DNA from: Dudresnaya verticillata
Taxonomy: Eukaryota
Assembly (NCBI GenBank): GCA_977862235.1
Contig: OZ374561.1
Span: 992,001-1,056,000 of the forward strand
Length of the DNA: 64,000 nucleotides
Direction of reading: 5' to 3'
Shown here in pieces: positions 11,311 through 63,526 of the stretch. Made by a program: the position numbers and the translations under genes. The notes under the pieces are model-generated. The model did no database searches and was not told the DNA's origin. It saw only the letters and a program-made list of their open reading frames with translations. How positions within the stretch are numbered: the first letter of the stretch is position 1; each line of letters opens with the position of its first letter.

Positions 11311-11999
11311 TGTGGTACAATGATCCGCCAGCGGCTGTAAGCACGTACACGTGTTTTGCGCCTATAATGCGCGGGTAATATTTCGCGTGGCATGCGCCTG
11401 TAAGGCGCCGCCCATACTGCCGCCCTGTAAGGCCCGGTGCATTGTTGGCCACCCCATATGGTATTGCTGGGAACAGCACGGCGCCAATGAGATGGCTAGC
11501 CGTGATTGGCTGATTTACCATGGCCTTACGCGCAGGAGCACGCCCGAGTCATAAGCACCTTACGTGCGCCGGGCGGAGTACGACCGCTCACCACCTCATT
11601 GTAATTATTAACGCTAACTTCAATAGCTTAGAATAGGAATAGCGGCGAAGGCGCTTTCGGCCTTCGCCATATTTATTGCCCCCTGACTAGCAGGGGTCTG
11701 CTGAATAGAACCCTACGGTGGGTTTCGGGTCTGTACGCTTTCTTTGGTCTACATGGGCTCACCGTACTCCCCCTTCCAGGTTCTTTACAAGCTTTAGCCT
11801 CGTACGGCTTTGTACTCTACGAGTGTTAGGGTGGCGCCGCCCCTTTTGCCTTTCTTCCAGGCACGCTAGCCTTTTCCCTTTTCCCTCAAAGTCTCTACCA
11901 ACTCCCCATTGAGTTACCCTCGTTAGGGTGTGTGCGCGCACGGGACAGCTGTCCTTGCCGTTTTAGCGGGCTACTGGCTCATCGCGCCATACTACTACA
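11311..11999 (+). repeat. Element A 5' LTR
   Basis: TGTGGTA...TACTACA; direct repeat of 41783-42508. Confidence 0.95.
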
Positions 12000-12000
12000 G

Positions 12001-12018
12001 TGGTCTCCCGACCTAGAA
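12001..12018 (+). promoter_or_regulatory. PBS of element A
   Basis: TGGTCTCCCGACCTAGAA, 1 nt after the LTR; identical in D, F and G. Confidence 0.9.
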
Positions 12019-12488
12019 TCGGTTCTGGGTCGATTCCCTTTATTACCTCAACGTCAGTCCATCGCTTTGGAATTTTCAAGGATCGAGTTTTCTCCCTGCA
12101 AGATCTCAAGGTTCGACTTCCTGGCGTTGAAACCCTAGTCGTCCGGGTGACGACGGTCCCTAAGCTTCATATCGAGCGCTGGAGTTACGCCAAATCTAGT
12201 GCAAGCACCCCTACCGCCGTGGCGGTTTAGTAAGTTCAACGAGCACATCCTAGTCGCGGATTGACGCCCCTTCCGGGAGAACCTCAACAGGTTATCGTAA
12301 TACCTGTACAAAAAAATACGTCCTTGTACGGGCTGTGCGGGCGCGCATTGCGGAAAGACCGCGTGGCCAGAATCGCCCGTAACCCCGAGAACGACGGTTC
12401 TGAAGAAGATTGCCCACTTGGAAAATTTTCCCGTCAGGCAACCACAGGACCGATACCCTTCGTTTAGGTCGACAAGACCGACCTGAAC

Positions 12489-15181
12489 ATGCCGACTTCC
12501 AACGGCGAGACCACCCGACCGGGATTGACCAGTCGTGGTGGAAGCCGTTCCGGCAGTCTTTCCTCCGTGAGGACAATTGGGACGAGAACCCGTGCGGCCG
12601 TCGCCGCTCTTGCCCAAAATCCTTTAGTAGGAGAAGTGGAGCGCCCGCCCCGAATGGCGGGCGCGCCAGGAGATGAGGAACCACCTGTTCCAGAGAAGGG
12701 ACAGGCCCCGAATGAAGAAAACACGGTCAGTACCGCTTCCGCAAGCGCCGCCAACTACGGCGCGAATGAGGGTCCTGACCCTAGTATGCCGCCGCCGCCC
12801 ATCAGCCGCGCTAGTCAGCACGGTACGGGCGGACAGGCCCTAGAAGATGTGACGACGTCATCATTGCCCCCGGACATAGGGTTGCCAATGAGAACGAAAG
12901 CCAATTCGACCGACCAACGGTGTTTCTCCGAACGCGAGATAGGCCAGATGGTCGAATTGGGCATCGAAAATGCTCTCGTCACGAGCGTCCGAGCGTTGCT
13001 CGAGAGCCAAGCTGACGAAACCCTCTCGAGGGTGAAGCGTTATTTCGACGACTCAACAGCCCGCCGGGGCGATCAATTGTTGGCAAAGGTCCAAGAAGAG
13101 ATCGATTCTCGATGTCGACAAACCTCCTCTCGAGGAGTAGACGAAGAACGAGTCGAGACCCTACAAGCCCAGGTCGATTCCTTGGGGGACCAATTAGACT
13201 TGGTCCACCAGGAATTAGACCAGGTTACAACGGACGCCGACCGTTCAAGACAAGAAGCCGCTTTGGCTATTTCAGACGCCCAGTTGGGCGTAGACAACAC
13301 TCGTTGTGTTGAACAAGACAGACGCATCGAGCTCCTCCAACAGGAGCTCGATGCGGAGAAGCGTCGAGTCGCTATGATAGCAGCACAAATGCGGCGACTC
13401 AACCGCGAAAGGGAAGTCGTCCCTGAGATAATGCGGCGTCGTTCGGCAGTGCCAAAAGTCACGCGCGACCGTCGCAGAAGGTTACCCCATCACGGGTCAG
13501 GCCACGAATCTCAATACGATGAGGAAATGGCCCGGTGTCCAAATCACCGGGGGTGTAATTGCAGCCGACCGAGTCAACCTCGGTCTCGCCCCGATAGGCA
13601 TTCTAGCCATCGACATGGCGGGGACCCCATCAGGAAGCATATCCTACCTCAGGTCCGTCCGAGGACGAAGCGCCACAGTCAAGAACTTTCTCCAGACCCT
13701 CCTGGTCTTCTTGGAAGGGACCCCGGCGTTCCGGGTTGAAGGAATTGATTCCGAGGAAACCTGCCTTCATACCCGTACTTTCATACAGGAGGTATAGGTT
13801 GTTGAACCTGGATGACTGTGCAATGACTATCGGGGACCCGAAGTCACGGAGACTACGACGAAGAAGATAAAACGGGTGAAGACCGTGATGAGAAGTCGCC
13901 GGTTCGACGGAAGTGACCCAGTATCCATTATTGGATTTCTCGCAACGCTGAAACGACAGCTGGACCAAGCTCACATTAGTGAAGGAGCAGCTATCCTTGT
14001 CATCCCAGAATTTCTGGAGAAAGATGCCAAAGACATGTTTGAAGCGAACTTCGACGCTGCAGGAGATGATAATGATGGATTCACCGAATGGGCCGAGGCC
14101 GTCAATTACCTTCTTCGCACGTGTGCGAAAGACGTCTACATATGTATCGATATCGAGAGGATCGCCTCTAATATGGACACGATGGCACAAGAGCCGAATG
14201 AGGACGAGGTCACCTTCTCTCGACGGTTGCAAAATCAGGCGCGACGAGTCGCTGGGGTCTACACAGAGCAAGACTTAAATAACACGCTTTATTAGGGGTC
14301 TTCTCCCCGCGGTGAAGCCGCTGCTGAGTACTACCTCTCTGGATCCACGTACCGCCCGTTTGGCAGATTATGTCGAGCTCGCCACCGCCCAGGGAGATTC
14401 TCATCGTGCCCTAGTGTGTGGTAGCCGAGCGAAGAAAGCGACCTCGACGCTGCACAGGAAAACCCTCGCGAAGGTACGGACGCACAAACCTGGTCGGGCA
14501 CTGCTCATTCGCCAGTCGAGGCGGTCGGGAGCATCTGACTCCGAATCCTCAAAGAGTAGCGACTTTGAGGACGACAACGAAGATGCCGTCGTCGCGACTA
14601 TATATGAAGAAGCGCCACCATCGACGGCAACCCAATCAGACAGCTGGTCCTCCGGGCAGTACTCCTATAGCCAGCCATATTATGGCGAAGTGGATGCGGT
14701 CATCCAAAACTACAACCATAGGCTCCCAGCCTGGGCTTAGCCAACAAGGACGCAGCGTCCTGGATGGCAGACTGTCGAGGACCAACCAAATGACATCTGC
14801 TTTGAGTGTTATGGCGTCGGCCATAAAAAGCCAAATTGCCCTCACCTGGCGCGTACGGACGAACAGCCTTTTGAGACTCTAAAAAGGAGGCAGTTCCAAG
14901 CGCTCTCGCATGAGCAGAAGGCATGGTTGGCAACTGTAGGGCGACTACCCTACTTCGCAAATGGACCGGCCTCGACAGGCCAAGCGATTGGGCCACCGAC
15001 AGGCACGCGTCAAAATATGGGGACGGGCGCCGGCGGAAATAGGCAAGTTCAATTTCATCCGGGTCTGAATCACCCCATCGACGCGCCAGGGCAAGCGCCG
15101 AGGTCACCAAGACCAGGGTCACGACCCTTTCCGCCACCACCACCGTTACCACGGTTTCCCGCGCTCAAGGCGAAGAACTAG
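12489..15181 (+). pseudogene. gag: Element A gag (frameshifts and stops)
   Basis: Coiled-coil N-terminus, capsid-like FDGSDPVSIIGFL, zinc knuckle CFECYGVGHKKPNC near 14797. Confidence 0.85.
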
Positions 15182-15758
15182 AGAGGGGGAACCGGTTTCG
15201 GTTGACTCGATCACTCAGGTTACATCGGAACCCCCGATCGATTCGCTGAACGCAGCTTCACTAGCACAAGCTTCGACAGCTTCTCCACGGATCGACCGGT
15301 TTCACATGAGAATGTCGCTTCTGTTCCGAAGAACATCTTAACCCGCCCCATGGGCTTACCCCGTGGGCGTACGTATGACGAGTATTGTAAGGACCCAGTC
15401 TGTTCCCTGTCACGCTACAACTATAAAGTTGCTATGTCCGTCGGGACTTCTGTGGACAAACTCACTCGAGTACTATCTGTATTGGATACAGGGGCTGGCC
15501 CTAATCTGATCCGGGCGGACGTTCTTTCTCCGGAAGAAAATAAACGCATCTCGACGAACAGGTCGATCGTCAACTTGACGTCTGCGTCAAGTCATAGACT
15601 AACTACACTGGGAACCATCTCGCTGGTTGTACGCGTGGGCTCATACACGGTTCGACAACCTTTTGTTGTCGTCAAGGCGCTTGCAGTGGATGCCATCCTG
15701 GGATGCACGTTTATCGATACCCACGTCGAGGGTCTACGTGTTCGGAAACAGAACATCG

Positions 15759-16667
15759 TGTGGAGCAGGGGGAGGTGAGCCCTTTTTCGCTGAAAGCGGG
15801 CAGACCAAATACGTCGACCAACGGAGAAACCGCCACCGGCGCTCACCACCGCCGTTGGCGCGCGAACACGTCATCGACGGCTCACTGGGGCGCGCGCGCA
15901 CAATGCGCGCCGCGCGCCACGCGGGCGCTGTACGGTGATGGGCCGACGTGGCGCCCCGGGACACTGTAATACGGATCCAGATGGGATCCGGATCCGGTAT
16001 CCAGATTGGCTATCCGGATCGCCTAAGCTCTAAGATCCGCGCCTGTAAGGCTGCGGGTATTCGCATTGCTGGCCCGATCCGGATGGGATCGGGATCGGAC
16101 AAGTATCGGATTAGATCCAAGGTGCACGCTCTACAGTATGCGCGCGCGCACGGCTGTAAGGCACACGCGTCCACGTGTGCGTGTAAGCACCCGCACAGGG
16201 GGTTGTACAGCAATCTGTCAGGCGCGCGGCTGCATGCGATGGGTGATCTGTCAGACGCACCTCGGGACGACACGTGTCCCGAGTTCCCGCGCTACGCACA
16301 CGCACCGCCGCCGCCGCATCGCCGTACTATACTTAGGTAAGCCGTCCCAGACGTAACAGTAAACGCCCGGGCAAGCCGGCCTTGGTCCAGACTTCCCCGT
16401 TCCGCACGCGCGTACCCTACCGCTGCCTACGGCTAAGCGTCTACCTCCCGTTCTTCCACGTCTACCATCGTCCTTGACGTGTTCCCTTTCTGTTTCCTTT
16501 TCCCTTCCTTCACACCTTCCGCCTCGGGCGTTTACAGTCCTCCCAAGGCGTGTTCCTTTGCTCTACCAACAAGTCGCCCACGGCGGGACCACCCATCGCC
16601 GAGGGCGCAGCTACCCACCGAGCCCCGAACTGCTCGGCGGTCTATCGTCTCAGACGTTTGCACCACA
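15759..16667. mobile_element. Solo LTR B (909 bp)
   Basis: TGTGGAGCA...TGCACCACA termini, TSD CATCG/CATTG; protease resumes KQNI|VLRDG. Confidence 0.9.
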
Positions 16668-19100
16668 CATTGTTCTCCGAGACGGGTCGATACACCCTAT
16701 CCTAAGGCGCCGTTGCGGCATACCCCGTGAAGGTTCACCCTCAGAACCAATGGATGTCCCTCCTTTAACTACCTCGCGACTAATACGAGTCACCGCACGC
16801 ACTAACTTAGCGACGGGTAGTGAGACATGGGTCGCCGTGACCTGCTCGGCCCAAGGAACGCACTTCCTAGAATCATTTCCACGGTTATACGACCGCCAAC
16901 ACGTGGTCGTGACCAACGGTATCGTCGATGTACAATCGAATCGGCTCTTCCACATGAAGGTTGCGAACTTCTCGCCACGCATGCAGCAGCTTCAGAAGAA
17001 TCAAAGCCTCGGAAAGGCTGTACCAGCGCCCACCCGGACGCCGGTGTACGCTGTTTCCATCGAGGAATCTGATCCTGCCCTCAATCCTGACACCTCCGTG
17101 TCCAGTCCTCAACCGGACACATTCCCCGATGTGGGGGGGCGGGACTTGCTGCTGCTCTTGGTAGCGAAGGTGCAAAGCCTGGAATTAAAACAGCAACCTC
17201 TACACCGTCTCCCATGTCAGTCGATGACTTGGCACTGGAGCACCTGTCCGAGCCGGACCGTCGTCGAGTACGAAAAATGCTCCGACCGTTCGCCGGTATG
17301 TGGGACGGCCAGCTGGGAACAATCCAGGTGACGAAGCACCGAATTGAACTACAAGAAGGTTCGAAACCTGTATTCTCGCAACCCTATCGGTCGGGCCCGA
17401 AAGCTAGACAAGTCGAACAAGACGAAGTAAACAAGATGCTAAAAGAAGGCGTTATCGAGCCTGCTCGCACGGAGTTCGCAAGCCCCGTGGTGCTGGTCAA
17501 GAAACCAGATGGGTCCCTACGTTTCTGCGTCGATTACTGCAAGCTCAACGCTATCACAGTGAAAGACACTTACCCTCTCCCGCGGATGGACGAGTGTCTG
17601 GACTCGCTGGGAAACGCCCAATACTTTACGACCTTGGATTGTAATTCCGGGTATTGGCAAATTCCAGTCGAGGAAGATGACAAGCACAAAACGGCTTTCA
17701 CTTGCCATGCCGGATGTTTCCAGTTTTGCAGAATGCCCTTCGGGCTCTGTAACGCTCCCGCGACCTTTCAACGTACGGTTGATATCCTACTCTCCGGATT
17801 CAGGTGGAAAACCTGTTTAGTCTATTTGGACGACATCATTATTTTCTCGACGACGGTCGACGAACACCTCAAACACGTGAAGGACATTCTAGAAGTACTT
17901 CAAGAAGCAGGCGTTTCGCTGAAACTAAAGAAGTGCAACTTCTTCACGAAGAGCGTTGATTACTTAGGGCACGTGATCCGCCCGGGATTGCTAGAAGTGG
18001 CAACCAAGAATACCCAAGCCGTCGAAGGGTTTAAGGAGCCGAAGACTCAGACCCAGTTACGGCCACTTATTGGAATCTGTAATGTGTACAGGCGCTTCGT
18101 GCCTAACTTCACGCGCGTGGCGGCCCCGCTCAACGCACTCCTACAAAAGGATCAGGGCTTCGAGTTGCCAACGTTCGACGAACGTCAGCGAGAAGCGTTT
18201 GAACTTCCCAAGAAAGCGTTAGTCGTTCCGCCGATACTGCGGATCCCTCAAGAAGGTAAGGCTCTCTCCGTCGACACGGACGCCTGTGATTACCAAATCG
18301 GTTGCGCATTGATGCAAATAGAAGAGGATGGCACCCGACATCCCATAGGGTTTTGGAGCCGCGACCTAACGAAGGCGGAAAAGAACTACTCGGTAGGCGA
18401 GAAAGAATGCCTAGCAGTGGTCTGGGCAACGCAGATGCTTCGTCCATATTTGGAACGGTCCCACTTTGACCTGTATACGGATCATCAAGCTTTTAAATGG
18501 ATGATGAGCATGATCGATGCTTCAGGGCGACTGGCCCGTTGGAGGCTACGCCTGTTGGAATATGATTTCACGGTGCAATACCGAAAAGGAAAGAAGAATC
18601 AGATCGCTGATGCCGTCTCCCGGCTGCCAACCTACGGCTTTACCCAATGGGAACCGGACCTCGAGATCCCCTGTTTTGTAATCGAAGACGATCGAAGGGA
18701 CGCCTGCGACGAACAGTCGCCAACGCGGAAACCACGAACGGGGGCGCAACCCCAACCCTTAGAAGTTTGGGAAGTCGAACCTGAGGACGACGACCCTTCG
18801 GGTGACGAGCAGCTGATAGCGCAAGTGTCCGACAAAGAGTCGAGCCAGAAGGGTCTCTCCCTAATAACGGTGGAGGAGTTGCTCCGAGACCAGAAGTCCG
18901 ATGACTTTTGTATATGGGTCCGACGGAACCTCGAAACGGGAAAACCCGGTTGCTACCTCGAAGATTAGCGCGGGCTCCTAGTGCGTAAGTCATACATCGA
19001 CCGCGCGCTACAGGCACTCGTACCTAGATCTCTGAAAGAAAAGGTTCTACACCTAGCACACTACCCGGATTTGGCCGGCCACCCGGGTGGCACCAGGATG

Positions 19101-20083
19101 TGTGGTGCAAAACGTCTAGGACGGAAAAGCACGCCCGGGCAGTTCGAGACCCGGCGGGTAGCACGTCAGAGACGGTAGGGGTGGTAGAGCATGGACAACG
19201 CCACAAGGCGGACTGTAAACGCCCTGGGCGGTAGGTAGATCGAAACCAAAGAAACGAGACAAGACGGAAATGGAAACACGTCAACGACGGTGTTGCACGT
19301 GGAGGGACGGTGGTACCGACGCTTTGCCTAACGGAAGCGGTGGCGACGCACACACTAGCGGGAAGGGGCATTCGGCTACCAAGGCCATAAAGGGGGAAAA
19401 CAAAAGGGGATACACGTCAAAGACGGACATTGACGCGGAAGCGCGATCGTCGCAACGCGTAGCCAACGTCGGTAGCGGCAGTGACGCTAACGAGCGAAGG
19501 GGCGAAGTGTGAAGGCAGACCGGCTTGCCGGGGTTTACTGTGACGTCCTAGACGGGTTACCTAAGTATTACTACTACTGCGTGGGCGACGGCGGTGGCGC
19601 TGCGGCGCGCGGGAACTCAGGACACGTGTCGTTCCGTCGTGCGTCTGACAAGCGCCCTCGGAATGCAGCCGCGCGCCTGACACATTTTCCCACGCCACCG
19701 CGCGCGCCGCGCTAATGCTTACACCTACACGTGTTCATGCACCGCGCTTACAGACTCTTGGTCCCATTGTCCTCCGCTGCCCTGTGACACGTGCCACGTG
19801 TGCAAGTATGCCACGGGGCGCGGCCGTGCCCCAGTAACTACACCTCACGCGTTCTCTCAACCCGACATTGCCGTCACTATCCGCTGTGAGCGGGAGGTCT
19901 GGTTCTTGACCAAGTTGCCCGACAAAGTCGAATGACTAGCGCCATCGGCGGAAACAGGGATCACGAGCGGGTTCGCGCCTCAAGCTCGATCCCAGTCGCC
20001 AAAGGCGGTAAAAACGTCAAAGACGGGAGGTATCCGTCTAGGACGGTACAGAGCGCCAGTGGCGTGGGATAATTTGCACCATA
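19101..20083. mobile_element. Solo LTR C (983 bp), related to B, opposite orientation
   Basis: TGTGGTGCAAA...TTTGCACCATA termini, perfect TSD GGATG. Confidence 0.9.
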
Positions 20084-20793
20084 GGATGTATCACAACCTT
20101 CGACGTCAGGTATATTGGCCCGAAATGTCTCTCGATGTTTACGCGACAGTAAGAAATTGCGTCAAGTGCGCACAAGAACGCGTCCAGCTTCGACAGCCTA
20201 CTTCCCACATGAAGCTATTCCCGGCAACACTGCCTTTGGAATTCGTAGGGATCGAAATCCTCGGACCCCTGACCCGCTCAGGGAAAGGAAACGAGTTTCT
20301 CTTAGTCATGACTGACAGGTTCTCCAAGCTCACGCGAGCGATACCACTGAAGACAGTTACGGCTTATACCGTAGCCAAGGCTTTCTGTGAGCATTGGGTC
20401 TTCATATACGGTCCACCCCGTTATGTCCTTTCGGACAATGGCTCGCAATTCGCGTCCAAGTTCTTCCTCGCCGTCTGCGACATCCTTCGAATTAGGAATA
20501 TGTTTACGTCGACCTATCATCCTCAGACCAACGGTCAGACCGAACGGTTCAATCGGACCCTCTTAGCGGGTTTGCGACACTTCATCGCTGAGGACCAGAA
20601 GGACTGGGATGAATTCACTTCGGCGTTGACGTACGCGTACAATACTACTGTACATCGGGCTACGGGCCTGGCGCTTTTCGATTTGGTGCTATCTAATCCA
20701 CCAACATCCATCTTGATGGAACAAGCAGAGTCGGTGAACGTCGATCGCATTCCGGCGACTAACGTCAAGAAGCGGTTAACAGCTCGCTTGGAG

Positions 20794-23048: not shown

Positions 23049-24039
23049 TGGAGAAGCTGATGGATACGGCGTTGCCTCGAATGAAATTAGCGCAACGGCG
23101 CTATGAAACTAATTTCAATAACCGAATCAGGCCTGCTAACCAGAGGGTAAGAACCGGATCGTGGGTGTTCCTAAAAAGGGAAACGAAGGTGAAGGACGCT
23201 TCAGGTGTGGCCCGCGAAGGGAAGTTGTTCCCTAAGGCTCTCGGGCCGTATAAGGTTCTAGAACGTGGAACGCACGTTGTCGTTCTAGACATCAAAGGAG
23301 ATAGAGAGACGATATCTCTGGACCGGGTTACCTCGGCCCCCTCGCCGCATGAAGAACCAAGCGCGCAGGGTCAAGACCCTTCAGTAGTGGGCCTCATGCC
23401 ACAAGGCGCATATGCGGATAGCGATCCTCACACTCCCGAGAGACAGGGAGTTACCGATATTACGGATAATCCGACTCTCGCGGTGCAGCCTGCTGACGGG
23501 ACATCCATACCAAGTCCCGAAGAGACAGTGGCTGCGGCCCCTTCCGATCCGGATCGCGATCCTGAAACCGCCGCGCCCAACACTTCGGCGACAATGCCGA
23601 ACGACACCACCTCCCCGCGGAAGTTTTCTCGTTTTAAGAAAGCGCCGCCGCGCGAGCGAGTTTACGACCGTATTGTGTCGTACGACGCTGATCGACTCCT
23701 CTACCGCGTTCGGTGGTTTCAGCTCCCAGCCTCCGAAGACACCTGGGAGCCCAAGGAACATCTTCCTCATAACTTGGTGGCAAGATACCATCGAGTCAAA
23801 GGGGTCGCTCTCCCGTAATAAGCGTCTCACGCTAGGTCATCGCTCAAGAAGAGCAAGTTCGCCGAGAAGAGGCTAGATCTGGCCCCGCAAACTCAGGTGG
23901 CAGTTGCGAATAAGCGCCTAACGAGGTTAACCCATTGTGGATGACGAGCACTAAGCTCTGCAGTAGCGATAACAAGAACGGCCAATGGGCCTGTGTATAA
24001 CAATAGGAAATGGGAATGACCATTCCCCCTTTTAAGCTG

Positions 24040-24310: not shown

Positions 24311-24495
24311 GAAGCACGGCTGCCACAACACAACCCAGCCGCACCCTCCGGCGCTACCGACGCTTCGGCAGGGAAAGAGACCCCCCCTGATGGCAACCCT
24401 GGCTAGGGCCAACGGAGGCTATCATCAGACTGCCTAAAATTCGGCAGTGGGGCCATCGCCTAAACATCGATGAGCCTTGAGAACCGGCTGAAAAC

Positions 24496-45566: not shown

Positions 45567-45627
45567 CGCGGCCGTTGCGCTTCGCTCTCCGGTTTGCGCT
45601 CTTGCGTGCGTTCCTTGTGGAGCGTTT

Positions 45628-51323: not shown

Positions 51324-54150
51324 ATGGAGTCACGCGAACCGATCGCGGACGGCGCCCCCGCCGAGGGGGCGCCGGTTACCAAGCCCACCTCCTCGACTGA
51401 GTCAGTCGTAGGGGGTGGGCCTGCCGAGCCGGTGCCAAGGGCGCCGGCTGGCGGAGAGGCGCGGCCTTCGACGGCCGCGCCAACCGCAGAGCGACCTTCG
51501 ACGGTCGCTACAGAAGAGGCGCAACCTTCGACGGTTGCGCCAGAAGAAGCGCCCCCATCGACGGGTGCGCTGGGCAAGACCGGGGCTGCTGCGCCGGCTT
51601 CGTCCGCCGGGGCGGGTGGCGTCGACGCCAACCCCACCCCAACGCCCGCCGCTGACGTCTGGTCAGAGGCGGTGGCCCTTGCTGCGGCGCAGGGCAAGAG
51701 AGTGAAGGACCCGAGTGGGGCGGCCTCTGCCGCCCCGCGCCCAGTAGCGGCGGCTCGGGTCTTTCAGCCGACTGGCCCGCCTCGCGCAGGGCCTACGGCT
51801 CACAGCAATCAACCCGCGTCGACGCGAGGAGGGGCACCCGCGGAGCAGCCTTCGCGCTCCGCGGTGCCGATGGTGGCGAGGGTGCTCGACCTGAGTCGGT
51901 CGAGGTCACCCACGCCATCAGGGTCGGGGAAGTCCCCGCCGCGGCGGCACCCTTTGTGCCGCGCGATTCTAGTGGCTTGGGACCGTCGACGGCCCCGAAG
52001 CCGTCTCCCGTGGCCTCTTCCAACGCAGAGGGGGAGGCCGCGGGCGTGGGTGAGTCCACCGCTGCGCCCGTCGTGCCTCTTGTTGGGGTGTCGGTCTCAG
52101 TCGGACCGCCCCTCATGGGCCAGGCGCCCCCCGGACAGCACGCGCCCCCGACCGAGACGGTCTTCGCCTGGGGGGCGCCGCGCCACCAGATCCCGCTGGA
52201 TCAGTGGCGCGGGCTGCAGGAGCCTCGGGCAGATGTCCGGCGGCTCCTGAGGGTGGCCCACGCGAGCGTGGACGGAGGGGCGGCAGCCTATGCCGGCTTC
52301 CTCCCGGCGGACGCCATAGTCTGGCTCACGCCGTTGGGGTTACCCTGCGACGTTTCTTACGTCGCCTCCCTTGAGGAGCTTCGGCGGGTGGACAGGGCAG
52401 CCGATGCCCTCTTCCTGACACCCGCCGATGAGTGGGCCCCGCCCCTGCCTGCCACCATCCCAGAGATGCGCACGGTGCCCGTCGACGAGCCCGTGGACCT
52501 CGCGCACCGTCTGGCCGATGCCGACTCTGCGCGCCACCTCTTCGGGGTGTGCTTCGGGGAGCGGGACTGGGACGTGTGCAAGGCCCCGGGCGAAGGACGC
52601 CCGTCAAAGGGGTGCAAGTTGCACCCGGCGCTCGACGCGGCCTGGTTCCCATCAGCGGAGTGGTACTCCCACCGGGAGACGCCATCGGGATTCACTATCC
52701 CGTGGATAACCGTAGACCGGTATTTCCACTACGCGACAGTCGGTCGCGTAGCTGCTCGTCGTGAGCTCCTGGCTAGGCGCTCAGATGAATACGCCTTCGA
52801 GGTGGGCCGCCGCTACTGTAGCGAGCTCCTCGCGAAGGGGACAGGCTGGGTTTTTGACGACCGCCTAATTAATTTCCTCGCGACCGGCTGGTCAAGCGAG
52901 AGGCCGTGTTTCCCAGACTTGCTCCGTCCTTCAGATGGCACGTCTTTTGGGTTCGGCGAGCTACTCGGCGTAGTCCGCCGAGTGGCTGCGGAAACGGAGA
53001 AGCACACACGGAGGCGTCACTTCTCTTCACGCGTCGACGCGTTCGTGTGTGGCTTCTTGCCAGAGACAGGGGGCCTCTATAAGATCCAGCGCAATCGTGG
53101 CGCACGTGACCGGCGGGAGCGCGTCGAGCGCTCCGGGTTCGCCTCGATGGCCGACATGGCCCGCACTGAGCGCGCCGGTCGTCGCCGTCGTGGCGTGGGT
53201 GCTAACCCTGGGTCAGCCGCGGCCGTGATGGCGGCGGAGACCGAGTCATACATCCCGCCGCCCGCAAGGGCGTCTGCGCGTCGTGCGCCAGCCACCCCTG
53301 CGGCAGTCGGCGGACCGGCTGCTGCGGGGCCGTCGACGGCCCGCGCCCCTCCGGCCGCTGCCGTTGAGGTGTACCAGCCCCCGCCGGCCCCGTCTGGGTC
53401 GCCGGCGGTGGCTTATGTCCCACCTCCTCCAGTGGTCGACCCACTGGACGAGGCGGTGAGTGCGGCAGTCTGGGCCGATCCGACTGTACGCAGTGCGGCC
53501 TCCTTGGCGCGCGTCGGGCAAGGCGTGTCGACACGCACGCTCCTGCAGGCCCTGGCATCGAGCGCAGTGGCGCTGCAGGAGGATGTCAACGCCTCCAATG
53601 CCGTCGCGGTTCGATACCGCGACGAGCGGGACGGCTTTGCCCGCGAGGTGCAGAGGCTCCGCGGGGAAGTCCAGCGCATGTCTTATGCGCCGGCGCGCAA
53701 GAGGCTTCGCGAGGAGTACCAGCCACCCCCGACGGGGTATGCGTCGATGCAGCCGATGCAGTCGTACGCTCCGGGCCCTTCTGGCCCGGCTGCCCCTTGG
53801 CAAGGCGCCGGGCAACTGATGTACCCGGGCGCTCAGGGCGGCGCAGGCGCGCCGCCCAGTGCTGCAGGCGTCGTGCCACAGCAAGCGGTTCTTCCCCAAG
53901 TGAGGGGCCCGTCGATGGGCCCTTACCGCCCTGCAGCTCCCATAGGTGGGGGCGCAGTGGCGTACGGAGGCTCGGCGCCTCCGCTTCCCGCCGGGGTCTT
54001 CCACCAGCGCCAGCGGCAACCACAACGGTGGTTGAGGGATACGTGCCCGTGGCGCAGCGGGCTCTGCGCCCGCCTTTCCCGGTGTGGGTCCTGGGGGCGA
54101 GGCCGCCCAGTAGTTTTGCCGTAGTGGCTTATGCTGTAGAAGCATCCTAG
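51324..54150 (+). pseudogene. Antisense accessory ORF of element G (frameshift at ~51.95 kb, possibly another near 54.0 kb)
   Basis: Ala/Pro-rich N-terminus, central Trp/Phe-rich globular region, coiled coil (ALQEDVNASN..EVQRLRGEVQRM) and NLS-like PARKRLR. Same position and orientation as in A and F. Confidence 0.75.
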
Positions 54151-55582
54151 TTCGAGGCGGTCGATCGCCTCGCTAGTTTTTAGACCGCCGCTGCGTGTCT
54201 GGTTCATTAAAGGGCAAGGGGTGGGCGAAGACTTCGGTCCGCGTCGACGCGTTTTCAACAGCTGCGCCTTCGACCGCGCGGCTGCGTGCGAGCTATGCTC
54301 GCTGTAGCAGGTGGTGGGGCTTCGACGCCCCACCTCATCATGGGTGCTATTGTGCCTGACCCGCGTCGAAGCGGGTGGCGGTCCGCAGTGCTGGCGTCGA
54401 CGCCACACAGGGGGCTGCCAGCGCGCGCAACGCCGCGTCGATGCGGAGCGTCAGCGCGGAGCGGGTGCCCCTAGTGGCGTCGCGGCTTTGCGCCGGAGGT
54501 GACCGCGTCGAAGGGGTCCTCTCCGCCGGGAGTAGCCACGAGCGTGGCGGCGGCTTGGGCAGCCAACCCCAGGCCAGGGGCGTCGATGCCCCTGGATGAG
54601 TGGGCAGAGGCCCGGGGGTGTTGGACCCCATTGGGCGTTCCCAATTATTTGTGTTTTGGCTACAGTAGACACTGTAGCCTGAACACAAATCTGCGCCTCT
54701 GCGCTTGTGGGGCGCACGCGTCCCAAATATGGGTAAGGGCGCGCCTGTATTTGGCAGGGGCCGGTCGTCTGCCGCGGTGCCCTCGGCCTTCCCATCGTCG
54801 CGGTGGTTGTGCCGCTCACGCGTCGAAGCGCAGCGGTGCAACTCGAAGGACGCCGGCCTTCTTGGCTCTGGTGCCCCACATCGACGTGGGGGCTGTGCGC
54901 GTTGGCACCCCGCCCGGCTAGGCGCCAGGGCGGTGGGTGTTGGCCGAATATTACGCGCGACCGCGCCGCGGCGTTGGTGAAGGGGGCGTCGACGCCTGCC
55001 CTCCGCCATCTGCGTGCAGCTGCCACTTGACGCCGACGTCGGTGGCGCTTCGGCTTGGATGGCTCAGTGGCTTCTCCAGCCTGGTCGCGTCGAGCTTCGA
55101 CGCTCGTTTCGCGTGCGCATATGGCGAGGGCCCTCCTTCCGAGTCGACTCGGCGTGCGCGTGCCCTCGTTTTTGCCTGGGCTTCTGCCGCGTGGCGGTGG
55201 AGAAGAGGGCGTCGACGCCTGCCCTTCGCCACCTGTGCGCGGCTTCGCGGCGGCGTTGGTCAGACAACCCCCGACGGTGCGGGTTATATTCCGCGTAGCG
55301 GGACTTCGCTACTGACGGGCGTCGAGCCGGTAGTAGCGAGGGGCGTCGTGCCCAGCGTTCCTGCGATGCGCAGTTCGCAGAGCACCCCTGCTCCTTGGCC
55401 TCTGCCATTGGCGCGGGGTGCTTTCAGCTTGGGCCGCCGGCTTAGGCAGCCGCAATTCATGCCCTTACCGTGGGGCTTAGGCCCCACGTGGTCCCGTCGC
55501 TGGGAAAAAGGAAAAGGATGCCTGGATGAGGTTAATAACAGGCAAAGAATGCCTGAGGCAAAGAATGCCTGGGGCCCCCTCC

Positions 55583-58500
55583 TTAAGCACGAGGCGCCCC
55601 CGCCGAGGGGGCGAGTGGAGGGGATGGGGCGTCGAGCCCAGAGCCCTTCCGACGCTTCTGCGCGCGGAAGTAGTGGCTCACCATCTCCTCCGGCAAATGG
55701 GATCGAGGTTCCCAAGTCGGCTTAGAGTAGCCGGTCCACTTGACCTGAAAGAGCATCGTGCCGTCTTCGGCCGTGCCATGGTCAAGTACCTTGTCCACCA
55801 CGAACCGCGGGCCGTCGACGGCCTTGGAAGCGAGATCGTTGGCGGTGGGCAAGTACGCGCTTCGACGCGCGGTGTCTTCCCGCAGAGGCGGGGGACAGAA
55901 GACGGCTCGGTCCGCTGCGATGCGTTCGACCAAGCCGTCTCTGTCGATAAACAACGTGCGCTCGTCGTTGAGCAGCACGCGATAAGGCCCGATGGCCGGG
56001 CTCTGCAACTTCGGTGGTTTCGTCACCCCGTCAGTTGCGTCGATGAAGACATAGTCTCCGGCCTTGATGCGGGAGTTGACCTTCCGGACCCGTCGGTCAA
56101 AGTCCTTTTTGTAACGCCTCTGCGTTTTGGCCAGGGCGGCAGAAGCCAGGCCCATAGCGGTGTCTAACCGCTTGAGGAAGTCCGTTCGGACATCCTCACT
56201 AGGTTTCGGGCGGTCGACCGCCGAGTGAAACTTAGTAAATTCCGGCGGAGTCCGTGACAGCACTAAGCTGAATGGAGTCGTCCGCGTCGAGCGGTGCACG
56301 TGACAGTTGTAGGAATACATCAACGCAGAGGCGTATCGATCCCAATCGTTTTGGTGATCGTTGACGTAATTCCGCAACATGGCCATGACGGTCCGGTTGT
56401 AGCGTTCAGCCTGCCCATTCGACTGGGGGTGATACGCGGAGGTGAACACGTTGTTCAAACCCAAATACCGGCAGACGACTTGGAAGAACTTCGATGTGAA
56501 CTGCTTTCCGTTATCGGAAAGCAAGGACCTAGGCGGCCCGTAGTGGAAGACCCACTGTTCACAGAAGACAACTGCGACGTTGTAGGCCGTAATGGTGCGC
56601 AGAGGCGCGACTTGCGTCAGCTTAGTAAAGCGGTCCGTCATGACGACGAGGAATTTGCGACCAGACTTGGTCTTGGGCAAGGGGCCCTGTATGTCGATAG
56701 CGACGGATTCCAGCGGCCTGGTGGCCGGGAACAGCTTCAGTCTATGAAGGTGTCTGCGCAGTCGAATGCGGTTATGGGCACAGTGCCTGCAGTTTCTTAC
56801 TGTCATGGCGATGCTGGCCGCCATATGCGGCCAGTAGTAGGTCTCACGCAGGGAATAGAACATCTTGTTCTGCCCTGGGTGGCCCGCGAGGAGGGAGTGG
56901 TGCGCGAGCGTGAGCAGCCGAGGCTGTAACGACTCGGGCACCACTATCTGGTCTAGCGAAGCTATGACCGGATGATGGCGGCATAGAAGCCCATCCCCGT
57001 CCTCGTAAAAATGGCTATCCCGTCGACGGGACTGCCTGGCCAGTACGGTCTGGCAGAAGGAGTCGTGCCGCTGCGCGTCCACAAATTCCTCGACGGAAAT
57101 AGGTGAAGGGAGCTTCACTGGCTCCACGGACGTCAATTCCGATGGCTCGTCTCCCGCGTCGACGCGGAGGAGATCGAAGAGGTCGACGTCGTCGGTGTCG
57201 TCCCACGCCGCTTCGTCGGCCAAGTCCGGGGGTTCGTCTGCCGCGACCGTCGTGGGCGCGGTGCCGGTGATGCTTCCCCGGACTGGCTTCGGGACGGGCT
57301 GCGCTGGGGCCGAACGCGTAGATGCGTTGGCCCGCGAGCGTGTGGTTACCAAGACGGGAGCCGCGGGTTCTGTACCCGAACGTGCCACCGGCGTCTCAGC
57401 CGAGGACTCCCCTTGCTGGCGGTCGATCGCCGGGGGGTCAAAGGTAGGGACGTCGTCGTCAACCTCCTCCTGTTTCCGCTGGGGTCGAACCAAGCGGGAC
57501 AGGGCATCCGGGACTTGGTGAACCCGCCCGGGGCGGTACTCGATCTGGAAGTCGAATTCCGCGAGCCGCAGGCGCCACCGGGTCAGTGGACCCGAAGAGT
57601 CGGTCAGCGACATCAGCCATCGAAGCGCATCGTGATCGGTTCGAACCGTGAATCGCGTGCCTTCGATGTATGGCCGCAGGGTTGTGATCGACCACACCAC
57701 TGCGAAGCACTCACGCTCAGTGGCGGAGTAATTGCGCTCCGCCGAGTTGAGCGAGTAGGACCAGTACCCGACTGGGTGTAGCTGGCCGTCCTCCTGCTCC
57801 TGCAGTAGGGCGCATCCGAGCTGATAAGCCGATGCGTCCGTATCGAGGACGTAGGGTCTACCCGTCTTGGGGAGCCGTAGGATAGGGGGCGATATGAGCT
57901 TCGCTCTGAGCGTCTCATATGCCTCGAGCGCGTCGGCGCTTGGATTGTCGAAATCCAAATCCGCGTCTTTGCGGGTCATGTCCGTCAGAGGACGCGCGAT
58001 CTTCGCGAAGTTGCGCACGAAGCGGCGATAGACATTGCACGCGCCGAGGAACGACCTCACCTTAGTCAGGGAGGTCGGGAACTGCGCATGGCGGAAAGCG
58101 TCGCTGCTCGTCTGCGCCATGCGTAGCTTCCCCGGTTCGATGACGTGGCCGAGATAGCCAACGCGTGACTGAAAGAAGTGGCACTTCTTCAGTTTCAGGG
58201 ATGCTCCTCCCTTGTGCAACAGAGTCAGCACTTGGTCTAGATGACCAACGTGCTCCGCGATCGACCGCGAGAAAATGATCACATCGTCTAGATAGATCAG
58301 GCAGCACTGCCATCGGACTCCGCTGAGGATGATGTCCAGTGCGCGCTGGAAAGTCGCGGGGGCGTTCTTCAGCCCGAAGGGCATTCGCAAGTAGCGAAAC
58401 GTCCCTAAGAACGAAGGGAACGTGGTCTTATCCCTGTCAGCCTCTGTGACAGGGATTTGCCAGTACCCCGCGTTGCAGTCCAACGTCGAGAAGACGGCTG

Positions 58501-60186
58501 CGTCGCCTAGACTGTCGATGCAGTCGTCCATCCTCGATAGAGGGTACGCATCACTTAGTGTTTTCGTGTTGAGACGTCGATAGTCCACGCAAAACCTAAT
58601 TGTGCCGTCCTTCTTGGGCGCCAGGACGACTGGCGATGCCCATTCCGAGGTGGCGGGTTCGATAACCCCTGCACGAAGCATGTTATCCACCTCGTCCTGC
58701 ACCAGCTTGCGCATGGCAGGGCCCTGTCGGTAGGGCATGGAGCGGATGGGGCGAGTGCCCCGTTCCACGTCGATGTGGTGTCGGGTGGCGGCAATAGTGC
58801 CCAGCCTCCCGTCCCACATGGACTGATGCTTCCTGAGCATGGAGAGGACCTCCGTGCGGGTCACCTCGTCTTCGATAGACGAGAGATCGACCTGCGCCTC
58901 CCAGTCCTCGACGGACGGGTTGGCCTTCGCTGCGGCGGTAGCTGCGCCCTGCAGCGGCTGGGCGTCGGTGCCCTTCGCCGTCGACGGCGAGGTGGATGGT
59001 TCCACGGCACCCTGATTGACCGGGGGCCTCTGCCCCCGTGGTGGTAGGGTGGTGATGTTCATCACCCGCCCATACTCCTCCGCGACTTTGCGGTCTGGAG
59101 TTATCAGTGCCACCGGGTTCCTAACCGCGTAGCCGACAACGGTACCCTTAAGCAGGGTCCGAGGCTTGTCGGTGAAGTTCCCGACGATGGCCCCGAAAGG
59201 TCGCATCGACTCGACGTCGTGCACCCCGTTGGTAAGTCTCACGCCGTGGCGGAACTGCAATGAGGGTTTGGGTTCGGTGTGGATCAGCCCACTTGCTCCT
59301 GACGTCACGGAGACGAGCCTTTGGGAATAGGCTGGGAGCACCATCTGCCTAGAGAGGCGGATGGTGTGGTTGTCGTGATCCCAGTCGAGGAGCTCCCTCT
59401 GGTGCTTCCTCGACAAACCCGTCGACGGGTTCTTTGGCTTCGATGCAGGCTTGCGGTCCTCGGCAGGTCTACTGCGCTTGAGGGGGACACCGAGCCCCCA
59501 CGTCGGAGCGATAGGCGTTTCGACTCGACGTCGATGCCTCGCACGTGCGCATTGAGGAACTGCGTTCCTACCAGGACGTCGACGGCCAAGGTGTCTGCCA
59601 CTATGAATGGCACGCGGAACGTCGTGTTCCCCAACCTCATCGAGAGGTGCGCCACCCCTGATAGGCTCAGTGGGGTCTTATCAGCCCCGGCGAGGCGAGG
59701 AGTCGACTCCATCGCCGCCGCATGCTGATCCCATCCGGGCGGCAGCGCCCGCTTCGCGACGAGGTTGTACCCGGAGCCGGTGTCCACCGCAATGGTGTGG
59801 GGTATCATTACCCCTGGGTCAGCGCCGAGCGACCCAGACACGCGGTATATCTCCGAGGACAAGAGGCACACATACCCGTCGGGGGTAGTGGCCGGCTCCG
59901 CGTCGACGCAGTGAGCCATGGCACCTTCGCGTCGAGCGGAGGGTGCCTCAGGATCCGTCGACGGACCCCTATGCGCTCGGCGTCGTGCCTGTCGCTTGCG
60001 TCGACGCCGCGGGGGCCAAGGTGGCCTGGAGCGCGTGGCTTTCGACGGCTCGTCGCAAAGCGGCCCCTCAGCGCTGCTGGGCGAGGGGGTCCTTCGTGGG
60101 TTGGGACTCGACGTACTGCCTGCCGTCGACGGCTTGGCGGAGGATGGTGGGTCTGGGGTAGAGAGAGACGGTGCGCGCGACCGCAC
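55583..60186 (-). CDS. pol: Element G pol (PR, frameshift at ~59.45 kb, RT-RH-IN-chromodomain)
   Basis: VDTGSGYN, YLDD, TDASAYQLG, YHPQSNGQAERYN, chromodomain FQVKWTGYSKPTWEP. Confidence 0.95.
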
Positions 60187-60200
60187 GAACGGCGCCGCCT

Positions 60201-62621
60201 TTACTCTTTTTCCGGTTCGACCCGGTCAACATTATTTTCGGAATCCGAGCTATCTTCCTCGGATCCCATTGGCTGGCTAGGGGCCGGGCCGGCGCCTCGC
60301 GTCGATCGCGGCGGCGTGTCAAAAAGGAGCGGGGGCTGCTCGACCTGCCCCCGGGCGGACTCGCCCTTGCTCTGCGCATCGAGCGCTCGCGGGAGCCACT
60401 CGTCGGCTGCTAGCCCGGTGTGCTCCTGCACGGTCATCACTGCCCGAAGCAGTTCACGCTGCGGGTCGGGCCTCGAGGGCGTCGACGCCCGAGGTTGGCG
60501 ACCGGCTTGGTCGTCAAACCCGACCCGCTTGTCGCGAGTGAGGAACCGCGGGACGTCTGCCGTTCGGTATTCGCGGCGCGGATCTCGACGATCCCCGCGG
60601 TACTGTCGTGGCTCCCCGCGATACCTTTGCGCGTCGAAGCGCTGCGGGGGACCCCTATCGTCGAAGCGTCGGGCCCCACCCCGCTGCGCGTCGAAGCGTC
60701 TTGCGGGGTAACTTGCCTTGGCGCCTGCCGGCATGCGCTCGTCGATGAGCTGCTGCAAGTTGTTGCGCGCGTGCGGCTGCGTCTCCAGTCTATGGTTGCA
60801 GTTCGCATACGCGCAGTACAACTGCTGTTCCTTAGTAAGGAATGGGCACGAGTACATGATGTGCCCAAGTTCTCGGCAGAACCAGCAGATGTACCACCCC
60901 TGTCGATCAGGGGTGACAGCGCGGGCCATGCCCTCTTGCGCCGGTGTGAGCGGAGGGATCCTCCTCGGCAGGATGGCATCGATGCGTCCTGCGATGTCGA
61001 GGGTCTCCTCGGCTTGCGCCGCCCCGGCTGTCGACAGCGCGGGCACGACCATGACGGGTTCGAAACCATCGTCATCGGGCGCCACCAACATCGTGCCGTC
61101 GAAGGCCGCTTCCCTATCGGGTGTGTGTGGCGCCTCGATAAGCAGCGTGCGGCCGCTTGGCGAACTGCTTCCCCTACCGCGCCCCGAAACGATGGCCGGC
61201 GTCGACGTCTTGGCCATGCGGGCGCGGTAGGTTGTGCCCTCACTGTGGGCGATCCGACGAACGGTACTGAAGTTGGTCTGCTCGAGCATCGGCATCTGCC
61301 TTACCTTCTCCGCTACTGCGGGTCGGGTGGTCGGAAGCAGACCACGCAGGAACTGGTGCGTCAGGTTCTCGTCGGAGTAGACGCCGGCACAGTCATTTGC
61401 GTAGCCCTCTAGACGAGAGGCGAACTCGAGTTCTGACTCGGTGTCCCGCTGCCGGGCGGTGGTCAGTCGGTCGTGCACGTCGGCGATCACGTCGTCGGTG
61501 ACGAACCTCTCGACGAGGGTATTGACTACCGAGGCCCAGCACGGGGGGGTGCCGCGACTAGTCGTCCGGACCCCCGAGAAAAGGTGACTCGAATACACCT
61601 GGGATGCCGTTCCATCTAGGAACCAGGACACCACTCGCGCCGCTGCGCCTTCCGACAGGCCGACGCCGTTGAAGGCTTGGCGTAGCTGTCTAAGCACGCC
61701 AAGCAAGCGGATGGGCTCCTTGCCGTCGTAGCGATCTAGCCGCGGCATGAGAGCCTTCATCCGGCTGACAATCTTGGTGGTGTTGCCATTGCAGAATTGC
61801 TGCTGATTGTCCCGCTGCCTTATGTCGTCTAGACGATAGGAGCGGTAGTCGATCGCCTTCGCGAATTCGGGGACCAAGGTGCTCAGCGGCTCGACGCCCG
61901 GCATCAATGGCCCCCAGTGCCAGTAGGCCGACACGGGACCTTCGTGTGGTGAGGGGCTAGACGCCCCTCCAACTCCGCGCCCGTCGAGGGCGCGTTGTAG
62001 TAGCTTGGGGTCGACCACGTAGAAGGGTTCGTCATCTCTTGTAGGGCGAGGGGACCCTTGCCCACTCCTAGGCGGAGAGGCCGGTGGAGAAAAAGGGTTT
62101 CGCTGAGCACGACGCTCAGCGAGGAGGGCCTTGGCCAGTTCGCGAACCGGATCCGCTTGAGACGGCGATCGCGGAGGACGGCTCCGCACCGGCGACGGGC
62201 TAGGCGCCCGTCGGTCATACCGCGCCGGTGCGTGCTCAATCAACTCAACGCGTTGGCGTAGCTCGTCGAGGAGCCCTTGGGTTCGGGTTAATCCTTCCTC
62301 GACGGAGGCGAGAGTTCCGCGTCGAAGCGACTCCAGGTCACGTTGACCTTGTGCCCGCGCGTCTGCGGCTGAGGCCATGAAGGTGTCGTACACTTCCGAA
62401 AATGAGTCCATCGTCCCCTCGTAGAGTAGTTGGAGGTCGGTCGCAGAGACCGCTGTCCCTCCTAGGGCCTTGGCGATAGCAGCCCTGCGCTCGATGCGCG
62501 GTTCCTCTAGGGGAGCTCCTGAGACGCCGACGTTACTCAGCAAGGAAGTGCGTCGACCGCCAACTTCACCTGCCGCAGCGTCTGCCGGACCGGCAGCGGC
62601 CGAAGTAGGTACCGGCGGCAT
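60201..62621 (-). CDS. gag: Element G Gag, 806 aa
   Basis: YDGKEPIRLL capsid-like region and zinc knuckle CWFCRELGHIMYSC. Confidence 0.92.
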   Translation of the reverse strand: MPPVPTSAAAGPADAAAGEVGGRRTSLLSNVGVSGAPLEEPRIERRAAIAKALGGTAVSATDLQLLYEGTMDSFSEVYDTFMASAADARAQGQRDLESLRRGTLASVEEGLTRTQGLLDELRQRVELIEHAPARYDRRAPSPSPVRSRPPRSPSQADPVRELAKALLAERRAQRNPFSPPASPPRSGQGSPRPTRDDEPFYVVDPKLLQRALDGRGVGGASSPSPHEGPVSAYWHWGPLMPGVEPLSTLVPEFAKAIDYRSYRLDDIRQRDNQQQFCNGNTTKIVSRMKALMPRLDRYDGKEPIRLLGVLRQLRQAFNGVGLSEGAAARVVSWFLDGTASQVYSSHLFSGVRTTSRGTPPCWASVVNTLVERFVTDDVIADVHDRLTTARQRDTESELEFASRLEGYANDCAGVYSDENLTHQFLRGLLPTTRPAVAEKVRQMPMLEQTNFSTVRRIAHSEGTTYRARMAKTSTPAIVSGRGRGSSSPSGRTLLIEAPHTPDREAAFDGTMLVAPDDDGFEPVMVVPALSTAGAAQAEETLDIAGRIDAILPRRIPPLTPAQEGMARAVTPDRQGWYICWFCRELGHIMYSCPFLTKEQQLYCAYANCNHRLETQPHARNNLQQLIDERMPAGAKASYPARRFDAQRGGARRFDDRGPPQRFDAQRYRGEPRQYRGDRRDPRREYRTADVPRFLTRDKRVGFDDQAGRQPRASTPSRPDPQRELLRAVMTVQEHTGLAADEWLPRALDAQSKGESARGQVEQPPLLFDTPPRSTRGAGPAPSQPMGSEEDSSDSENNVDRVEPEKE

Positions 62622-62689
62622 TCTTGGCCTCGATCGCGTCGACGCGAGAGGTGATAGGGTCTTCTGCGACTTCTAGGTCGGGAGACCAG

Positions 62690-63526
62690 TGTGGCATAGA
62701 CGTCAGGTCGAACTGACGTCTAGCTGCGCTGGTCGATCGGTCGCACCCAGACCCGTCGAAGGGTGGTAGCTGTGGTGGTAGAGCGGTGGTGTCGGCCGCG
62801 CGCGCCGTCGACGGTCGCGGATCAACGGCGTCGAAGCCTGAGCGCGCACGGGGCGTACCGTACGCGGGCGGCAGCGGCCGGATCCCTGCGTCCCCGTCGT
62901 GGGGCGGCACGAAGCCGACGGTAGGGAAAGGAAAAGGAAAGCCTAGACGGCTAGGGAAAGAGGGAAGCCGTAGGGCGAAGGACTGGGAAAGAAACCCAAA
63001 GCAGAAAGGGCAAGCCTGGCGTAGGCTGGCTTGCCTTGGTTTAATGAAGCCCAGAGGGGCGACTACTAGATATACTACAGGGCCTGCGGCGGCACCAACC
63101 CGTGAGGTGCGCCGGCGCGCCCCAACACGCGTCGACGCGTACGGGTAACGGTAACCCGGGGGCGCGCGTAGGCGGAACGGTCCACACGTACTCAACGGCT
63201 CGACGCCGGAGTGCGCGCGCGCGTGTCACGCACTCAACGGCTCGCGCCGGAGTGCGTGCGCACAGCGCGCGGGACAGCAGGGCGTTCGACCGCCGCTTAC
63301 ACTAGAGGGTGCTGTACACTTACAAAACAATAAACGTAGAAATTGCATGGGAGTTTCAGTGTCACACGCGAACGCGTGTACACGTGGGCGCCACTGCGCA
63401 CTCCCTTACAGTTCAGCGGGGCTTCGGCGCCACCGGCTGACAGCGTGCGCACAGCAGTGCACACGTGGCGCAGCTGGTCTTACAGCTGCGCGTGCGTGGC
63501 ACCGCTGGTCTTACATCTATGTGACA
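62690..63526 (-). repeat. Element G 5' LTR
   Basis: Adjacent to the PBS; followed by TSD CATGG. Confidence 0.95.

Follow-up and report, generated by a model that had tools for sequence, protein, structure and literature searches.

We analysed 64,000 nucleotides of the Dudresnaya verticillata genome (contig OZ374561.1, positions 992,001 to 1,056,000; hereafter the window), a stretch containing nested mobile elements. A DIRS-like element, A, hosts the Gypsy-type long terminal repeat (LTR) retrotransposon B, and B hosts the elements X, C, D, E and F; a further Gypsy element, G, is located outside the B nest, after Helitron remains. Two properties of these elements are our subject: a long antisense gene between pol and the 3' LTR, present in all three long Gypsy elements (B, F and G) as a sequence-only reading of the window had stated, and dense short inverted repeats that differ from family to family. 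The elements and genes concerned are the following (window coordinates).

10291..45849, forward strand: DIRS-like element A, which carries the B insertion; used as a control, with no motif excess and a hairpin ratio (observed to expected) of 1.08.
11311..42508, forward strand: Gypsy B, LTRs at 11311-11999 and 41783-42508, primer-binding site at 12001; host of the nested insertions.
About 26014..28010, reverse strand: antisense gene of B, with stops and a frameshift.
28561..41486, reverse strand: Gypsy F, LTRs 99.7% identical, target-site copy CTGGG.
29479..31161, forward strand: antisense gene of F, open, 560 amino acids, its frame starting inside the 3' LTR.
33056..38296, reverse strand: pol of F, a single open frame of 1746 codons with protease, reverse transcriptase (RT), RNase H, integrase and a chromodomain-like end.
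38206..40606, reverse strand: gag of F, two frames with a break near 39530-39600, CCHC zinc knuckle.
50156..63528, reverse strand: Gypsy G, LTRs 98.6% identical.
51324..54124, forward strand: antisense gene of G, divided among more than one frame; its longest stretch free of stops covers 822 codons.
55583..62621, reverse strand: gag and pol of G, with gag at 60201-62621 (CCHC knuckle) and with protease and RT-RNase H-integrase in separate frames.
20794..23048, reverse strand: Gypsy D, internally deleted; 5' LTR at 22263-23048, primer-binding site, partial RT and a 43-base-pair (bp) remnant of the 3' LTR.
24496..25271, forward strand: solo LTR E, which belongs to the D family (94% identity), with 13 YGGCCR sites.
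15759..16669, reverse strand: solo LTR X, a relative of C, flanked by the target-site copies CATCG/CATTG.
19101..20082, forward strand: solo LTR C, target-site copy GGATG.

B, F and G have the features of chromodomain-bearing Ty3/Gypsy elements: LTRs, a primer-binding site, a purine tract and, G alone excepted, target-site copies. Their pol order is protease, RT, RNase H, integrase and chromodomain; the Pfam Chromo profile matches B (E 1e-7), and the ends of F and G match that of B. A single primer-binding site, TGGTCTCCCGACCTAGAA, is common to B, D, F and G (at 12001, 22246, 40694 and 62673) and is also present in 34 related loci. These were obtained by a scan with the primer-binding-site pattern, which returned 39 mostly short loci (L001-L039), five of them removed by eye as unrelated GC-rich sequences without a gag or pol match. 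The usual plant chromovirus primer site is that of the initiator methionine tRNA, from which TGGTCTCCCGACCTAGAA differs, and ARAGORN did not reveal the primer tRNA in ten loci. None of the three long elements is wholly intact, and the deletion in D has removed the region that would hold its antisense gene, as had been proposed. F is very young (2 differences in 775 LTR sites); its pol and antisense gene are open, whereas gag is split between two frames.

Short motifs are enriched in these elements beyond composition. Enrichment was counted on single copies within the window, against 200 local dinucleotide shuffles, trinucleotide shuffles and, for coding sequence, 1000 synonymous-codon shuffles. 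Compared with the dinucleotide shuffles, CGTCGACG occurs 26 times in G (0.9 expected), YGGCCR 32 times in D and 13 times in E (3.6 and 1.4 expected), and GGA-N1-2-TTCC 27 times in F (3.0 expected). All of these excesses hold against trinucleotide shuffles, and each motif is enriched in its own element only among those of the window. The sequence-only reading had noted these motifs in G, D/E and F, and the shuffles exclude base or codon composition as their cause. Its further claim that the excess extends into coding sequence stands for G pol (6 CGTCGACG sites, 0.7 expected), G gag, the G antisense frame, D RT (16 YGGCCR sites, 6.0 expected), the F antisense frame (7 sites, 2.1 expected) and the second F gag frame (6 sites, 1.7 expected); it does not stand for F pol, where GGA-N1-2-TTCC as written is not significant (4 sites, 2.0 expected, p 0.15). 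Tandem arrays do not hold the motifs, except for one 30-bp repeat in G. Conservation of YGGCCR between D and E, with 2 of 84 motif positions changed and 37 of 692 elsewhere, is not significant (p 0.42).

Rather than fixed palindromic words, F and G carry inverted repeats whose 4-bp arms co-vary across a spacer of 4-7 bases. The flanks of GGA-NN-TCC in F are complementary in 19 and then 20 of 24 sites (7.1 and 10.6 expected), and at the third position in 2 of 24 (7.3 expected). Likewise, the flanks of the G core pair in 48, 50 and 35 of 58 sites (22.5, 20.1 and 16.0 expected), and at the next position in 20 (16.1 expected). The F unit, RNGG-N4-7-CCN'Y with paired arms, has 99 perfect copies, pol included, or one per 123 bases, and GGANTTCC, which had been proposed as the target of the F protein, is too narrow a description of it. 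The G unit is a 4-bp arm around N-TCGA-N, with 41 perfect copies (70 with three of four pairs) and further loops such as AGAG; perfect hairpins of the N-TCGA-N type are absent from every other element of the window. In B, 4-bp-arm inverted repeats are in 2.3-fold excess with a weak arm preference, and F-type sites number 29 (8.8 expected).

The size of the unit is sharply defined. Given three pairs, a fourth follows with a frequency of 0.35-0.42 in all seven clade elements tested (0.26 and 0.28 in controls), and the frequency of a fifth pair drops to 0.23-0.30 in six of the seven, the seventh being L050 with 0.35. A strict synonymous shuffle, which keeps the protein, the codon use and the following base, gives hairpin ratios of 2.15 for F pol (206 compared with 96), 1.95 for G pol, 1.65 for G gag, 1.78 for B RT and 1.56 for the F antisense gene; in each of these five frames, none of 500 shuffles reached the observed count. 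The same procedure shows no excess in D RT (1.01) or the DIRS-like element (0.95). At a footprint of 12-15 bases, hairpin density is about 23-27 per kilobase (kb), compared with 13-14 per kb in controls. Spacing in F is more even than random (coefficient of variation 0.70 compared with 0.88, p 0.008), as it is in G and in L046, a related element described below. A search of Rfam gave no matches.

Fixed dyads without co-varying flanks form a second class. They are YGGCCR in D/E and CGTC-N3-GAC in C/X, the latter with arms of exactly 4 bp. C has seven copies of CGTC-N3-GACG (0.1 expected), and X, which was missing from the earlier element list and is about 55% identical to C over their alignment, has four CGTC-N3-GAC dyads. 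D has no 4-bp excess (hairpin ratio 0.99). The GGATC cluster that had been assigned to B as its motif belongs to X: its 12 sites at 15973-16118 all lie inside this solo LTR, in a local, gained GGATC/ATCCGG cluster without counterpart in C, and over the whole of B, X included, GGATC shows no excess (38 sites, 34.1 expected).

The same geometry is found in relatives outside the window. Ten pol relatives (L044-L053) are eukaryote-type contigs within one bacterial assembly (G001, L044-L070), which holds many eukaryote-type LTR retrotransposon contigs, evidently as carry-over; one of them, L046, is a complete element of 12.7 kb whose ends overlap. The 4-bp-arm excess is 1.70-2.36-fold in all ten relatives and 1.69-2.30-fold in the further clade fragments L004, L056 and L059-L062. 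Three other clade fragments, L012, L019 and L030, show little excess (1.19-1.33, flanking DNA included). More distant integrase-bearing contigs of the same assembly show no excess (0.87-1.26 in eight of eight). Ratios are 1.08-1.23 for the window controls and 1.14-1.44 for four elements from a viral collection.

Motif type tracks element lineage, and the table of families by motifs is near diagonal. A CTCN-N4 flavour is common to the related L044, L046, L047 and L051 (9-18 copies, less than 1 expected). L036 (1-8142) carries a fixed dyad, CC-N5-GG, 185 times (50 expected), or one every 44 bases across the LTR, gag and pol, with arms that do not co-vary. The G relatives L053 and L056 have a few G-type sites, and B, L048, L050 and L053 combine an approximately 2-fold excess with little arm preference. 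The two motif classes are strong together in no element; D falls within the G branch, although it uses a fixed word and lacks hairpins. The repeats also turn over in position at an unchanged density: only 21-38% of hairpins keep their position between sister elements. Four-fold sites in arms change less between sisters in three of four pairs, and double changes restore pairing with a frequency of 0.40-0.61, compared with 0.33-0.45 in controls (both directions counted).

The antisense gene of F and B is a real, conserved and fast-diverging family that encodes a folded domain. A profile built from the F protein together with two homologs and part of the B protein identifies the B gene as a homolog of the F protein (i-E 4e-33 over 27683-27138) and finds 1,337 clusters at E 0.001 and 134 at 1e-30, with no named cluster among the 20 that were looked up. 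L044 and L046 carry antisense frames of 1007 and 853 codons (L044:7213-10233, L046:10134-12692) at the same position behind pol, and L047 has a truncated copy; a profile-profile comparison places these three in the F/B family with 99% probability. The antisense proteins of F and B are about 20-27% identical, compared with 66% for RT, and thus diverge much faster. The F protein has a core of about 390 amino acids, predicted to be globular and mostly helical (pLDDT 93.5, pTM 0.91), which is followed by a low-complexity tail. Its conserved residues include D133, R138, E142, E198, R199, R202 and W269. A fold search with the whole model returned no match at E 0.001 in the PDB or viral libraries (best Z 2.3); the lack of a match does not prove the modelled core to be a new fold. 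Neither the F, G and B proteins (E 10) nor any of 29 homologs (above cut-off) matched a Pfam family. A match of the F protein to UHRF1 (E 0.097) vanished with another alignment and is regarded as chance. A look-up of sequencing runs listed none for F, which is evidence in neither direction.

The sequence-only reading had treated the three antisense proteins together; those of F and B are homologous, but a relation of the G protein to them is not detectable. Against the F-family profiles, G scores no better than shuffled sequences (at best, over five sub-profiles, 19 of 1000 shuffles reach its score), with an hhalign probability of about 1% or less. A word-based search found no homolog of the G protein, but this is a weak method, which recovered two proteins for F compared with the 1,337 clusters of the full profile search. 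The ESM Atlas gave no usable match for F and scores of up to 0.76 for G, and a single-sequence model of G is uninformative (pLDDT 35.9). By eye, G seemed to resemble the F family in its succession of a long helix, a short strand and a helix, but this was not borne out. The L044 and L046 proteins have a coiled-coil-like stretch and a basic tail past the core, a layout to which G (53600-53700) is similar by eye. A scan of metagenome and viral contigs found no locus encoding the antisense protein. L051 was considered as an element without the frame and set aside, since by eye its contig end resembles the basic tail of such a protein; the contigs of L036 and L049 end 0.6-0.7 kb after pol and do not bear on absence of the frame.

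The pattern is mostly neutral with respect to strand. G loops occur in both orientations (NTCGAC 23 and GTCGAN 17; AGAG 6 and CTCT 6), with one minor loop at 6 compared with 1. G-T pairs on the sense strand are not in excess in B, F or G, nor in comparisons of sister elements, and the two strands of G, like those of B, have equal local folding z scores. The fixed dyads of D and L036 are unable to make a 4-bp stem. Because G is strand-neutral, G-T pairs show no excess and D and L036 have fixed dyads, recognition probably takes place on DNA or on both strands.

We hypothesize that the family-specific inverted repeats are a self-recognition code read by a protein that the element itself encodes, the antisense protein being the likeliest, and assign this reading a probability of roughly 35%. 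The repeats, spread through the whole element, would mark the copies of their own family. Recognition may be strand-independent and on DNA, at a two-fold-symmetric site that would open as a small hairpin where the arms co-vary. The antisense protein may be the reader, and the system may use the density of its sites, as VANC does, to sustain the activity of the family in the face of host silencing or rival families. Selection, not mutation, would then maintain the repeats. A code with a reader is suggested by a unit that is sharply sized, family-specific, dense and rebuilt at new places during drift; an element-encoded reader is favoured by family specificity among co-resident elements, and DNA by strand neutrality. 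We rank the antisense protein first as reader because it diverges fast and is the sole gene without an assigned job. We hold a fuller form of the proposal to be somewhat less probable: the whole clade would mark all of its DNA, down to synonymous positions, with family barcodes made of 4-bp-arm mini-hairpins, and an opposite-strand protein of new fold would read this combined code of sequence and structure on either strand and protect or license none but its own family.

Several observations weigh against the self-recognition code. The main weakness is that the geometry is wider than the F/B protein family, since G has the same geometry and a protein without detectable relation; conversely, B has a homologous protein but a weak arm preference, and the link between protein and motif suggested by the sequence-only reading is not supported. 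Motif, gag-pol and antisense gene are inherited together, and lineage tracking is not specific to the antisense protein; trees built from RT, integrase and the antisense protein are concordant in their broad shape, but they are poorly resolved and cannot single out the reader. The F model shows no nucleic-acid-binding fold, the core is not basic on average (mean net charge +0.7 in 56 sequences), and a simple basic localisation motif is present in the tail of only 12 of 51 long homologs. Five clade members, D, L036, L055 (1.32), L057 (1.41) and L058 (1.21), show little 4-bp excess (range 0.99-1.41), and spacing is no more even than random in B, L044 and L051. One of the four sister pairs shows no effect at four-fold arm sites, and the p values of the sister comparisons are too small, both directions having been counted. 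F leans to the sense strand, both at unpaired positions (A/T 1.58 compared with 1.23, p 0.005) and in RNA folding (z -1.85 compared with -1.18, p 0.025 uncorrected). Finally, four-base stems are not expected to open from relaxed duplex DNA unaided.

The strongest of the alternatives, which we nevertheless think unlikely, is that the repeats are dispersed packaging signals, RNA stem-loops read by the Gag of each family, which would thereby package its own RNA in the presence of many competing families, and that the antisense protein does something else. Varied, dispersed stem-loops around a shared motif are a hallmark of packaging-signal-mediated assembly in the available excerpt of PMC6281560. 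The geometry is common to all branches of the clade, as is gag, and includes G with its unrelated antisense protein; a CCHC knuckle is present in all seven Gag proteins examined, and the sense-strand lean of F fits an RNA signal. The equal orientations of the G loops, the equal folding of both strands in G and B, the lack of sense-strand G-U tolerance and the inability of the D and L036 dyads to form a stem all weigh against packaging signals.

An improbable alternative is that the stems are selected as structure, or are read by a host factor, and would blunt small-RNA silencing on both strands or attract a host chromatin protein; flavour would then be drift, and no element protein would read them. 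The strand-neutral, element-wide distribution of a dense unit with a 12-15-base footprint is consistent with this, as is the excess with little arm preference in B, L048, L050 and L053. Short dyad symmetries are enriched at many centromeres and proposed, in the excerpt available from PMC5889037, to be read by a host chaperone. However, generic structure would not need the strict family specificity of F, G, C/X, D, L036 and the L044 group, nor arms that stop at four pairs, and the co-resident DIRS and Helitron elements and other integrase-bearing elements, although exposed to the same host, lack the excess.

We consider it quite improbable that the repeats are a mutational footprint without function, left by fold-back copying of the reverse transcriptase, which makes short perfect inverted repeats, next to an unrelated accessory gene. 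Perfect Watson-Crick arms without wobble, the lack of strand preference, the restriction to a single RT clade and the fast turnover would all follow from such copying, and the lower change rate of arms could be due to ascertainment. It does not account for the end of the arms at four pairs, the even spacing in F, G and L046, or the fixed dyads, including the fixed word and missing hairpins of D inside the G branch, and differences between LTR pairs are not clustered (7 compared with 5.4, 1 with 0.3 and 2 with 1.0; small numbers). Least probable is that two unrelated phenomena are present, the fixed dyads of D/E, C/X and L036 being sites of dimeric DNA-binding proteins of host or element and the co-varying hairpins of B, F, G and the L044 group being RNA structure: the classes differ in co-variation and are never strong together, but they replace each other within one clade, both run densely through coding sequence, and C/X has arms of exactly 4 bp.

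The window holds further features. The non-coding region of F (31162-33055) contains an old internal repeat (31475-31604 and 32721-32850, 76% identical). At the ends of G (50156 and 63528) the target-site copies do not match, despite 98.6% LTR identity, and G may be a recombinant of two copies. The LTRs of C, D and E contain CACGTG clusters (5, 5 and 3 sites; 0.7, 0.6 and 0.4 expected), possibly G-box-like sites for host factors. Directly past the end of the DIRS-like element are two long perfect inverted repeats (45880-46000). The Helitron remains are at 47109-49263 (DUF6570, Helitron_like_N), and a host gene at 6544-8228 encodes a cysteine-rich repeat protein with ephrin-receptor-like/TNFR-like repeats.

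According to the available parts of PMC7264820 and PMC11963269, the function of the additional antisense genes in LTR retrotransposons is not known. The clade described here allows a direct test, since it offers an intact F protein, confidently modelled and unmatched in fold, together with a precise, family-specific candidate target. Whatever its reader, an element-wide code of short inverted repeats in synonymous sites, distinct between families and turning over at constant density, is a constraint on retroelement sequence, and the pattern bears on the distinction of self from non-self among related families in one genome. If the fuller form of the proposal is true, it would be the first case of anti-silencing through self-recognition in a retroelement and would reveal a new mode of DNA reading.

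The open-licence literature yielded no description of this pattern or protein family, and four known systems resemble it in part. The VANDAL/VANC system (PMC5735166, in excerpt) has an element-encoded accessory protein and a short motif that is enriched in one family, which its density marks, and rare in others, and the parallel drawn by the sequence-only reading is apt as an analogy. It does not extend to membership: VANDALs are Mutator-like DNA transposons whereas the elements here are LTR retrotransposons, VANC has DUF1985/DUF287 whereas the antisense proteins of B, F and G and all 29 homologs lack a Pfam match, and the VANC motifs, as that excerpt describes them, are mainly non-coding, same-orientation, non-palindromic fixed words borne by tandem repeats, in contrast to the co-varying inverted repeats found here in coding sequence, in both orientations and outside tandem arrays. 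The VANC21 fold (PDB 9LNK; PMC13547354, in excerpt) was not among the matches of the F model, its presence in the searched libraries being unconfirmed.

Retand, Grande and RIRE2 also have a long region between pol and 3' LTR with an antisense frame, proposed to be regulatory (PMC11963269 and PMC7264820, in part), the position at which the frames of B, F, G, L044, L046 and L047 are found. Retand is a non-chromovirus with a TRP28 domain, whereas a chromodomain is present here and the protein has no Pfam match; the available parts of these sources describe family-specific tandem arrays, not element-wide inverted repeats. The packaging signals of RNA viruses (MS2, hepatitis B virus and others; PMC6281560, in excerpt) similarly consist of many stem-loops around a shared motif, coding sequence included, but on one RNA strand, whereas the pattern here shows, for the most part, no strand preference and takes the form of fixed dyads in some families. 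Centromere dyads (PMC5889037, in excerpt) share the excess of short inverted repeats over shuffles and are proposed to be read as non-B DNA; they lie in satellites, whereas the repeats described here are a candidate family code inside protein-coding mobile elements.

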